Sequence record: PP461118.1
Direction: 5' to 3' (one strand)
DNA: 64,000 bases
Origin: Enterobacteria phage ECP2307
A model generated the notes under the pieces. The model was not told the origin of the DNA and did no database searches. It saw only the letters and a program-made list of their open reading frames with translations. The translations under genes were made by a program, and so were the position numbers. Below, piece after piece: positions 56,168 through 57,669 of this stretch (the stretch's first letter is position 1; every line of letters starts with the position of its first letter).

Positions 56168-56539
56168 ATGAAGGCTAAGAGTGCAAAAGACTTTTACTGC
56201 TTCCTACAATCCTATATCCACTCCGTGGAGAACGGTGAAAGATATAATCTCAACGATGTTATTGCATCACCTTTAACATGGAGAATGAGTAAATGGCCTG
56301 AAGAAGATATCACACCCACTAGTAAACAACCTACCTACATCCCAGATATCAATCTCCCAGATTCAGATAAGTTACTATACCCGATGTTCCACATTGTTGG
56401 GCTTGGTACGTTTCTTATGGATATCCAGTATGTAATTGGTAAGGGTTATAAAGTTGAAGGCATTGTTGTTAGTGATGTGTCTCCACAACATAAAGGCTAT
56501 TTTAGATTAAACGCACGTTTAGAGGCTAAAAAGAAATGA
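56168..56539 (+). CDS. hypothetical protein, paralogous to the N-terminal domain of the next gene
   Basis: 123 aa; MKAKSAKDFYCFLQSYIHSVENGERYNLNDV... aligns with MIKAKTYPDFKEFVKGFIANVKAGKRYDFRTY... of 56536..57669. Confidence 0.5.
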   Translation: MKAKSAKDFYCFLQSYIHSVENGERYNLNDVIASPLTWRMSKWPEEDITPTSKQPTYIPDINLPDSDKLLYPMFHIVGLGTFLMDIQYVIGKGYKVEGIVVSDVSPQHKGYFRLNARLEAKKK

Positions 56540-57669
56540 TTAAAGCAAAGACTTACCCAGACTTCAAAGAATTTGTAAAGGGCTTCATTGCAAATGTAAA
56601 GGCTGGTAAGAGATATGATTTTAGAACATATCAAGAAGCTATTTTACCACTTACCTATAGTTCATATTGGCCTGAAGCTGATATCGCAGAAGTTGAGAAG
56701 TTTGACTACAAACCAGACTACAAAGTTCCATTTAGTGATGAACTCCTTTACAGCGTTGGTGCACAGATGAGAACTGCTGATTTCTTCATGGATTTACAGT
56801 ATGCAATTATCAACGGTAAAGATGTTGACACAATTTACTGTGAATGGCTGGCAAGAGTTAAGCCATTCTCAATGTTGAATGCTAAGCTGAAGGATGCTAT
56901 TAAGCCACCAGCAATTACTCAGCAACCAACAGGACAAACAGTCAATGAGGGTGGCACACTTACTCTAAGTGTTCTAGCAACTAACGCCACTGGATATCAG
57001 TGGAAGAAGGATGGTGAGGATATCCCCAGTGCCACTTCTGCAACTTACACAAAACAATCTGTAGTACCTTCTGACGCTGGCTCATACACTTGTGTTGTAT
57101 CTGGAGAGGCTGGAACAAGCGTTACCTCAGATGAAGCAACAGTTACTGTGAACGCTTTACCAGTGATTACCAAACAACCTTCTAACCAGACCATCAATGA
57201 AGGTGGCAACATTAGCTTGGAAGTGACTGCCACAGGTGCAACTGGCTATCAGTGGAAGAAAGATGGCTCTAATATTCCTTCAGCTACAAACGCTACTTAT
57301 AGCAAGTCTGGTGCACTTCCAGCAGATGCAGGTTCTTATACTTGCGTTGTAACAGGTGCAGGTGGTTCCGTTACTTCTAGCCCTGCAACAGTAACCGTTA
57401 AAGCACTTCCGGTAATCACTCAACAGCCAACTAATCAAGAAATCACTGAAGGTGAGACATTGACACTCAACGTTGTGGCAACAGGTGCAACAGGTTATCA
57501 GTGGAAGAAGGGTGAGGAAGTCATCCCAGACGCAACTGCTGCAACTTACACCAAAGAAGGTGCAACTGCTGCTGATGCAGGAAGCTACACCTGTGTAGTT
57601 ACTGGTGCAGGCGGTTCTGTGACATCTAATGCAGCAACAGTTACAGTTAACCCAGCAGGGGAGGCATAA
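56536..57669 (+). CDS. Ig-like (I-set-like) repeat protein
   Basis: 377 aa; N-terminal ~125-aa domain, then three ~80-aa tandem repeats each with ...ATGYQWKKDG...AGSYTCVVTG...ATVTV. Confidence 0.65.
   Translation: MIKAKTYPDFKEFVKGFIANVKAGKRYDFRTYQEAILPLTYSSYWPEADIAEVEKFDYKPDYKVPFSDELLYSVGAQMRTADFFMDLQYAIINGKDVDTIYCEWLARVKPFSMLNAKLKDAIKPPAITQQPTGQTVNEGGTLTLSVLATNATGYQWKKDGEDIPSATSATYTKQSVVPSDAGSYTCVVSGEAGTSVTSDEATVTVNALPVITKQPSNQTINEGGNISLEVTATGATGYQWKKDGSNIPSATNATYSKSGALPADAGSYTCVVTGAGGSVTSSPATVTVKALPVITQQPTNQEITEGETLTLNVVATGATGYQWKKGEEVIPDATAATYTKEGATAADAGSYTCVVTGAGGSVTSNAATVTVNPAGEA

Follow-up and report, generated by a model that had tools for sequence, protein, structure and literature searches.

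The window analysed here, a 64,000-nucleotide stretch of Enterobacteria phage ECP2307 (PP461118.1), encodes a 377-aa protein with immunoglobulin (Ig)-like repeats directly upstream of an endolysin and, just before it, a 123-aa protein that resembles its N-terminal domain. The 377-aa protein is almost certainly Hex-Dec, the Hoc-like capsid decoration protein of Felixounavirus, and no substantive evidence stands against that identification. The 123-aa protein is a standalone paralog of the Hex-Dec capsid-binding domain (CapBD), which we tentatively regard as a possible accessory of head morphogenesis. Taken together, the Hex-Dec identity, the arrangement of the genes and an accessory role for the paralog make up what is very probably the best overall explanation of the locus. 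The Hex-Dec part is already known, having been solved by two cryo-electron microscopy (cryo-EM) studies of 2025 on phages Bas63 and Sf14; the new element here is the characterisation of the CapBD-only paralog, and it is a modest one.

Hex-Dec and its place on the capsid

Many Felix O1-like myophages, UAB_Phi87 and vB_EcoM_E9 among them, share 92-94% nucleotide identity with the locus region, which places the window in Felixounavirus (Ounavirinae). A phmmer search of the Protein Data Bank (PDB) aligns the 377-aa protein, over its full length, with 9ncf_S at E = 1.6e-293, under the title 'Immunoglobulin-like domain protein', and with 9c2d_S/9c3a at E = 3.1e-169, under the title 'tail protein'. 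The first is chain S of 9NCF, the Hex-Dec of the capsid of Bas63 (Escherichia phage JohannRWettstein; Sci Adv 2025, PMC12609058), and the second is chain S of 9C2D/9C3A, which is gp20 of the capsid of Shigella phage Sf14 (Commun Biol 2025, PMC11821841). The two studies describe a monomeric Hoc-like protein whose N-terminal CapBD of about 118 aa plugs 60 of the 80 hexamers of a T=9 capsid, leaving empty the 20 true 3-fold hexamers at the facet centres, and whose Ig-like domains, one to four in number, extend away from the shell and could not be resolved because of their mobility (PMC12609058, PMC11821841). In Sf14, Arg79 and Arg107 of the gp20 CapBD form salt bridges to Asp221 of three subunits of the major capsid protein (MCP), and gp20 avoids the 3-fold hexamers because Asp221 is displaced there from the two arginines (PMC11821841). 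Virion mass spectrometry (MS) detects Sf14 gp20 (PMC11821841), and virion MS of Felix O1 detected gp36 with 44% coverage, at that time mislabelled 'major tail protein'. The original prediction had offered a virion decoration protein as one of two readings of the gene, and it is this one that cryo-EM and virion MS bear out by placing the orthologue on the capsid in close relatives.

The three tandem Ig-like repeats of about 80 aa that the original prediction had read in the protein are there, at 83 aa each. Pfam finds Ig_3 at 8.9e-33 over three stretches, Ig_2 at 4.7e-29 and I-set at 6.6e-25, all over the curated cut-offs, and in the repeat alignment the units are 68-70% identical in pairs and have GYQWKK...DAGSYTCVV in common. 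Tandem Repeats Finder detects no tandem repeat in the DNA of the three units, which are too diverged for it; the repeats are old. Among the PHROG families the protein matches phrog_3995 at 6.6e-207. A second HMMER stretch aligns residues 204-375 of the window protein to residues 287-458 of 9ncf_S; the Bas63 protein has four Ig repeats versus three in the window, where repeat 3 corresponds to Bas63 repeat 4, and three is within the range of 1-4 that the Bas63 paper gives for the genus (PMC12609058).

For the N-terminal domain, Foldseek superimposes an AlphaFold2 (AF2) model of residues 1-123 on 9ncf_S with a template modeling (TM) score of 0.73 and 95% identity. The window protein keeps Arg79 and Arg107, as does every core orthologue aligned, and the window MCP retains the motif HPKIRD(221)AYL, with Asp221 conserved; because all three residues are conserved, the published anchoring mechanism transfers directly to the window. 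The 118-aa CapBD would thus insert as a monomer into the centre of each of the 60 facet-edge (quasi-3-fold) hexamers of a T=9 capsid, would be held by salt bridges from Arg79 and Arg107 to Asp221 of three MCP subunits, and would leave the three flexible Ig-like domains projecting outward as a fiber. For ECP2307 the count of 60 and the monomeric state are carried over on the strength of the CapBD identity of about 95%. The fiber may serve adhesion to surfaces or mucus, or aggregation of particles, by analogy with what has been proposed for T4 Hoc; carbohydrate binding by the Ig domains, which the original prediction also raised, is in the published papers likewise only an extrapolation from T4 Hoc.

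Most GenBank records, and PHROG 3995 with them, call the Ig-repeat protein a tail or major tail protein. Ig domains do occur on tail tube proteins, and the window protein matches phrog_158 and phrog_853, in the Ig region only. The cryo-EM models 9NCF and 9C2D nevertheless put the protein on the capsid and refute a tail location, to which we assign practically no likelihood; the Bas63 authors consider the 'tail protein' label of most genomes a misannotation (PMC12609058).

The other reading in the original prediction was that of a lysis accessory of the adjacent endolysin, with or without the upstream paralog. What speaks for it is position: adjacency to the endolysin is kept in all lineages examined, the Hex-Dec stop codon and the endolysin start codon overlap in the window as TAATG (in Sf14 there is an 8-nt gap instead of the overlap), and no holin lies beside the endolysin. 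Against this, Hex-Dec is by cryo-EM and MS a capsid component of the virions of relatives, neither open reading frame (ORF) has a transmembrane segment in a Kyte-Doolittle scan, nor a signal sequence or lipobox, and in the Felix O1 reverse transcription PCR (RT-PCR) series the lysin, ORF35, peaks at 25 min versus 60 min for ORF36 and ORF37. Neither protein has a lysis-category match in PHROG or Pfam. The lysis reading does not survive these results and must be considered highly improbable; Hex-Dec would share its transcript and its translational coupling with the endolysin for no other reason than that both belong to an old, conserved cassette, and would have no role in lysis.

The closest solved comparison is Bas63, an orthologue from the same genus with a CapBD about 95% identical by Foldseek of the window CapBD model against 9ncf_S, with the same neighborhood of paralog, Hex-Dec and endolysin, and with the same architecture of CapBD followed by Ig domains. 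Sf14 gp20 is the orthologue in the sister genus Mooglevirus and has three Ig domains; its CapBD is 86% identical to that of the window and the phage shares Arg79, Arg107 and MCP Asp221 with it, while divergence is greater in the Ig region (63% identity for Ig1). Sf14 also encodes a standalone paralog, gp21.

Two other decoration proteins help to place Hex-Dec. T5 pb10 (5LXL for the N-terminal domain and 5LXK for the Ig domain; PMC5292684) has the same order as the window protein, an N-terminal alpha-helical capsid-binding domain followed by a C-terminal Ig part, and it sits as a monomer in the middle of the hexamer, bound to an acidic MCP surface, and is dispensable in the laboratory (PMC5292684). 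The Ig repeats of the window match 5lxk_A at 1.1e-11, and the PDB matches to pb10 cover the Ig part only. The differences are that pb10 has one Ig domain, that its 77-aa capsid-binding domain has no detected sequence similarity to the window CapBD, that it is present on every one of the 120 hexamers in a T=13 capsid, and that no CapBD-only paralog has been described for it. T4 Hoc, which is non-essential and has a proposed role in adhesion or aggregation, works alike, but its domains are in the reverse order, the Ig domains N-terminal and the capsid-binding domain C-terminal. The Bas63 authors describe the T4 Hoc CapBD as larger, with a distinct topology and pseudo-C2 symmetry, and call sequence conservation minimal (PMC12609058). 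The matches to 'Hoc-like' PHROG families (phrog_2973, 4069, 3945) cover only Hex-Dec residues 120-370, which is the Ig region. The reversed domain order and the topologically distinct CapBD put Hex-Dec outside the T4 Hoc family, and Hoc is an analogue, related at most by way of its Ig domains.

A standalone copy of the capsid-binding domain

The 123-aa protein encoded upstream of Hex-Dec ends after its CapBD-like domain and has no Ig-like domains. The paralogy of the two, which the original prediction had proposed, is confirmed by BLASTP with 44/121 identities (36%, E = 1e-17) over residues 1-119 of both proteins and by reciprocal PHROG cross-matches between phrog_4463 and phrog_3995 (6e-16 and 2.5e-16), and phmmer of the paralog against 9ncf_S gives 3.6e-12. 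The AF2 model of the paralog, with a predicted local distance difference test score (pLDDT) of 66.7, has its secondary-structure elements in the same order as the control model of the true CapBD. Searched against the whole PDB by Foldseek, it finds only 9ncf_S and 9c2d_S, with probability 1.0 and TM scores of 0.57-0.59, and nothing else at E<0.1. A TM score of 0.58 is near the limit of the method, since a CapBD control from the same alignment reaches only 0.73 against a solved structure that is 95% identical. The paralog is therefore predicted to have the CapBD fold. Pfam, NCBIfam and PADLOC return no match for it.

Across genera the pairwise dN/dS of the paralog is 0.07-0.16, comparable to that of the Ig1 domain and of the endolysin, and the paralog is a real, selectively maintained gene. 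Of 252 phage records, about 232 have it beside Hex-Dec; they span Felixounavirus, Mooglevirus and Suspvirus, where its equivalents include Felix O1 ORF37, Sf14 gp21, Bas63 bas63_0125 and wV8 gp042. The same cassette is present in a metagenomic phage of 87 kb, whose paralog is only 46% identical to that of the window. A neighbor-joining tree puts the paralogs, this 46%-identical lineage included, into one clade and the core CapBDs into another, each with 100% bootstrap, and leaves open the placement of Kolesnikvirus, which has no paralog. The paralog comes from one ancient duplication of the capsid-binding domain. Its stop codon overlaps the Hex-Dec start codon by 1, 4 or 8 nt in 10 loci from 4 divergent lineages, and in every lineage examined this overlap predicts translational coupling of the paralog to Hex-Dec.

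A fusion of the two proteins by -1 frameshifting was also considered, Hex-Dec being in the -1 frame at the Felixounavirus junction GCT AAA AAG AAA TGA. It was ruled out by the other junctions: Mooglevirus has GCT AAG AAA TGA without the slippery run, SUSP2 has an 8-nt overlap in another frame, and the divergent L013 lineage has TAATG.

Salmonella phage SP116 and phages Tf and mio retain only a decayed remnant of the paralog next to an intact Hex-Dec (coordinates L002:2306-2497 in SP116, likewise in L011 for Tf and L012 for mio), in which ATG has become ATA, about 220 nt are deleted and there are small indels. One deletion junction is common to all three, so this is a single loss event, and several independent losses are rejected on the same ground. 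By inference this one ancestral deletion is common to about 20 records in total. The paralog is dispensable, having been lost once in a viable subclade. Phages with the decayed paralog were isolated on Salmonella, Shigella and E. coli, and as natural knock-outs they are useful comparators.

The structural papers pass over the paralog. The word 'paralog' appears in neither; the string 'duplicat' is missing from the Sf14 text and in the Bas63 paper refers solely to the removal of duplicate particles during image processing (PMC11821841, PMC12609058). The Sf14 supplement is silent on the phage's own gp21, and follow-up literature searches found nothing on the paralog.

How far the CapBD reaches was asked with a profile search of 1.84 billion representatives, which returned a very small family of only 12 clusters at 50% identity; all of those with context examined lie in Ounavirinae-like surroundings. 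At L015:5001-5462 (Logan SRR33913825), from a distant Ounavirinae-like phage, there is a single 153-aa CapBD-only protein, P0059, directly upstream of the endolysin, with a Lys/Ser-rich tail and no Ig domain. P0059 stands alone at the syntenic site, so a phage may carry Hex-Dec solely in an Ig-less form. A further cluster representative, P0052 (209 aa), is a Hex-Dec variant that leaves the Ig frame after the GYQWK of repeat 1 and has an unrelated end, which appears to be a natural frameshift truncation removing all Ig domains.

What the paralog may do

The two arginines that anchor the Hex-Dec CapBD are not kept in the paralog. Position 79 is Gly in 9 of 9 aligned paralogs (8 and that of L013) and Arg in every Hex-Dec CapBD, including that of the distant Kolesnikvirus; the alignment at this place is ungapped and beside the invariant motif F-x-M-D-x-Q-Y. 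At position 107 the paralogs have Q, H, K or R, next to a 1-residue indel where the alignment is less certain. In Felix O1 the RT-PCR data put ORF37 into the 60-min class, together with ORF36 and the portal, sheath, tube, baseplate and fiber genes.

As to the virion, Felix O1 gp37 is absent from the published shotgun MS list, which contains gp36 and proteins of 9.7-13 kDa, and the VpaE1 text, read indirectly, implies that the paralog was not detected in virions; the wV8 and UAB_Phi87 papers hold no relevant data on virion MS of the paralog. Bas63 and Sf14 both encode the paralog, and their cryo-EM papers report nothing on the remaining hexamers (PMC12609058, PMC11821841). A monomer at a hexamer centre still shows up as a lump when averaged, as T5 pb10 does (PMC5292684). 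The paralog is apparently not in mature virions.

Our preferred, if tentative, proposal is that the paralog is an accessory of head morphogenesis. A late, co-translated protein with the CapBD fold would make transient or weak contact with capsid hexamers or with Hex-Dec and would not stay on the finished particle, and it would be a dispensable accessory with no place as a stable decoration. A more specific form, in which the paralog binds hexamer centres briefly or with low affinity (for example those of procapsids or of the 20 facet-centre hexamers), or else the Hex-Dec CapBD, and so helps to set the 60/80 occupancy, is doubtful; if true, it would make the paralog the first decoration-protein paralog described as an assembly regulator in a tailed phage.

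Several points weigh against the accessory proposal. The paralog has roughly double the dN of the Hex-Dec CapBD, which one might not anticipate for a protein docking onto the highly conserved MCP. The case for absence from virions depends on a single stringent MS list (coverage >=25%), on the indirect reading of the VpaE1 text and on symmetrised maps, and low occupancy or loss during CsCl purification may account for the non-detection. The AF2 model of the paralog is of moderate confidence only at its pLDDT, the route to the role is an indirect one and the binding partner is putative.

Another way to read the same gene is as a second decoration protein, one without Ig domains, that would cap the 20 hexamers at the facet centres (true 3-fold), to which Hex-Dec does not bind. 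The predicted CapBD fold and the late timing together with Hex-Dec fit such a protein, and so does the coincidence that the Hex-Dec-free hexamers have a displaced Asp221 while the paralog is altered exactly at Arg79 and Arg107; the distant lineage with P0059 (L015) supplies an Ig-less CapBD protein as the sole version. Yet Bas63 and Sf14 encode the paralog and nothing is reported on their 3-fold hexamers, where an averaged monomer would still appear as a lump on the pb10 precedent (PMC5292684), and the protein is missing from the Felix O1 virion proteome. We regard this second decoration protein as rather unlikely.

The paralog might also have only retained the fold and have a non-capsid function, such as engaging a host factor or counteracting a defence that senses capsids. 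This would agree with the loss of Arg79 in all paralogs, with non-synonymous evolution faster than that of the CapBD, with the apparent absence from virions and with dispensability in one subclade that spans several hosts. It has to contend with the strict adjacency and coupling to Hex-Dec, kept even at 46% identity, with a timing that is late and not early, and with the lack of any PADLOC, Pfam or NCBIfam match. A non-capsid function is in our estimate unlikely, if by no means negligible.

That the paralog is a function-less remnant has very little probability given its dN/dS of 0.07-0.16 and its retention in lineages only 46% identical. A decaying duplicate was rejected also by the look of the truly decayed copies of SP116, Tf and mio, which differ from it in having lost the ATG and about 220 nt.

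The cassette, its surroundings and what the finding means

The limits that the original prediction gave for the three ORFs, all on the plus strand, are exact, and the downstream neighbor is the T4-type lysozyme that it named (Table 1).

Table 1. Features of the Hex-Dec cassette in the window, with the gene of its binding partner
Feature	Coordinates	Strand	Details
Standalone CapBD-only paralog	56168..56539	+	123 aa; phrog_4463
Hex-Dec / Hoc-like decoration protein (almost certain)	56536..57669	+	377 aa; phrog_3995
CapBD of Hex-Dec, aa 1-118	56536..56889	+	limits from Sf14 gp20; carries Arg79, Arg107
Ig-like repeat 1	56902..57150	+	Pfam Ig_3/Ig_2/I-set and repeat alignment
Ig-like repeat 2	57151..57399	+	Pfam Ig_3/Ig_2/I-set and repeat alignment
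Ig-like repeat 3	57400..57651	+	Pfam and repeat alignment; best match is repeat 4 of the four-repeat Bas63 protein
GH24 (T4-type) endolysin	57669..58133	+	154 aa; PF00959 6.6e-41, phrog_7 endolysin 4.4e-58
ATGA stop/start overlap, paralog / Hex-Dec	56536..56539	+	read from sequence
GC-rich hairpin GGGGCTGATGCCCC, terminator-like, 5' boundary of cassette	56129..56144	+	scan; 24 nt before paralog ATG
Strong intrinsic terminator, 3' end of cassette	58143..58160	+	7-bp stem, 5 GC pairs, then T-run
Major capsid protein (MCP), predicted Hex-Dec binding partner	40452..41555	-	phmmer 9ncf_A 4.5e-246, 9c2d_A 2.3e-232

The gene is outside the structural block, as the original prediction had it. The structural genes of the window are on the minus strand at about 24.3-47.3 kb, and between them and the Hex-Dec locus there are 26 tRNA genes at 47.7-52.9 kb (47699-52876, all minus). 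The Bas63 authors likewise place the Hex-Dec gene more than 10 kb outside the structural module (PMC12609058), and a position outside that module and directly 5' of the GH24 endolysin is found also in UAB_Phi87, Sf14, Bas63, Moogle, Felix O1, VpaE1, SUSP2, M7 and SPARTY. The synteny of Hex-Dec and endolysin is kept in Felixounavirus, Mooglevirus, Suspvirus and Kolesnikvirus and in two metagenomic lineages.

The upstream hairpin is listed as a rho-independent terminator in Table 2 of the Felix O1 paper. It is kept in every lineage possessing the paralog and is absent from Kolesnikvirus M7, which is likewise without the paralog. A classical promoter was sought between the hairpin and the paralog and none was found in the short interval. 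In Felix O1 the gene before the hairpin belongs to the middle class and ORF37 and ORF36 behind it are late.

Two neighbors of the cassette may be mentioned. The gene at 55530..56120 (+), upstream of it, encodes a 196-aa protein (phrog_4034) and keeps its syntenic place in every lineage examined, Kolesnikvirus and the metagenomic contigs among them; a distant homologue in L015 has a faint Pfam match to Phage_Inh_N. Adjoining the tRNA cluster, 53042..54457 (-) encodes a 471-aa protein labelled DUF2828/vWFA 'RNA-binding protein' in related phages.

The statement in the original prediction that no holin or spanin is adjacent holds for the immediate neighbors, the nearest real gene with a transmembrane segment being 60450..60983 (+), 2.3 kb downstream. 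Its 177-aa product (phrog_4343) has two predicted transmembrane segments, at aa 94-112 and at 131-149, and its C-terminus is highly charged; no other real gene within 3 kb of the endolysin encodes a membrane protein. It is a candidate holin; the holin of Felix O1 has never been identified.

For the window, the finding mainly corrects the widespread annotation as a 'tail protein'. If the paralog is only a dispensable accessory, nothing changes beyond that. If it modulates decoration or head assembly, it helps to explain why Hex-Dec occupies the facet-edge hexamers only, and such a role would matter for the use of Hex-Dec as a phage-display scaffold in therapeutic phages of the Felix O1 type.

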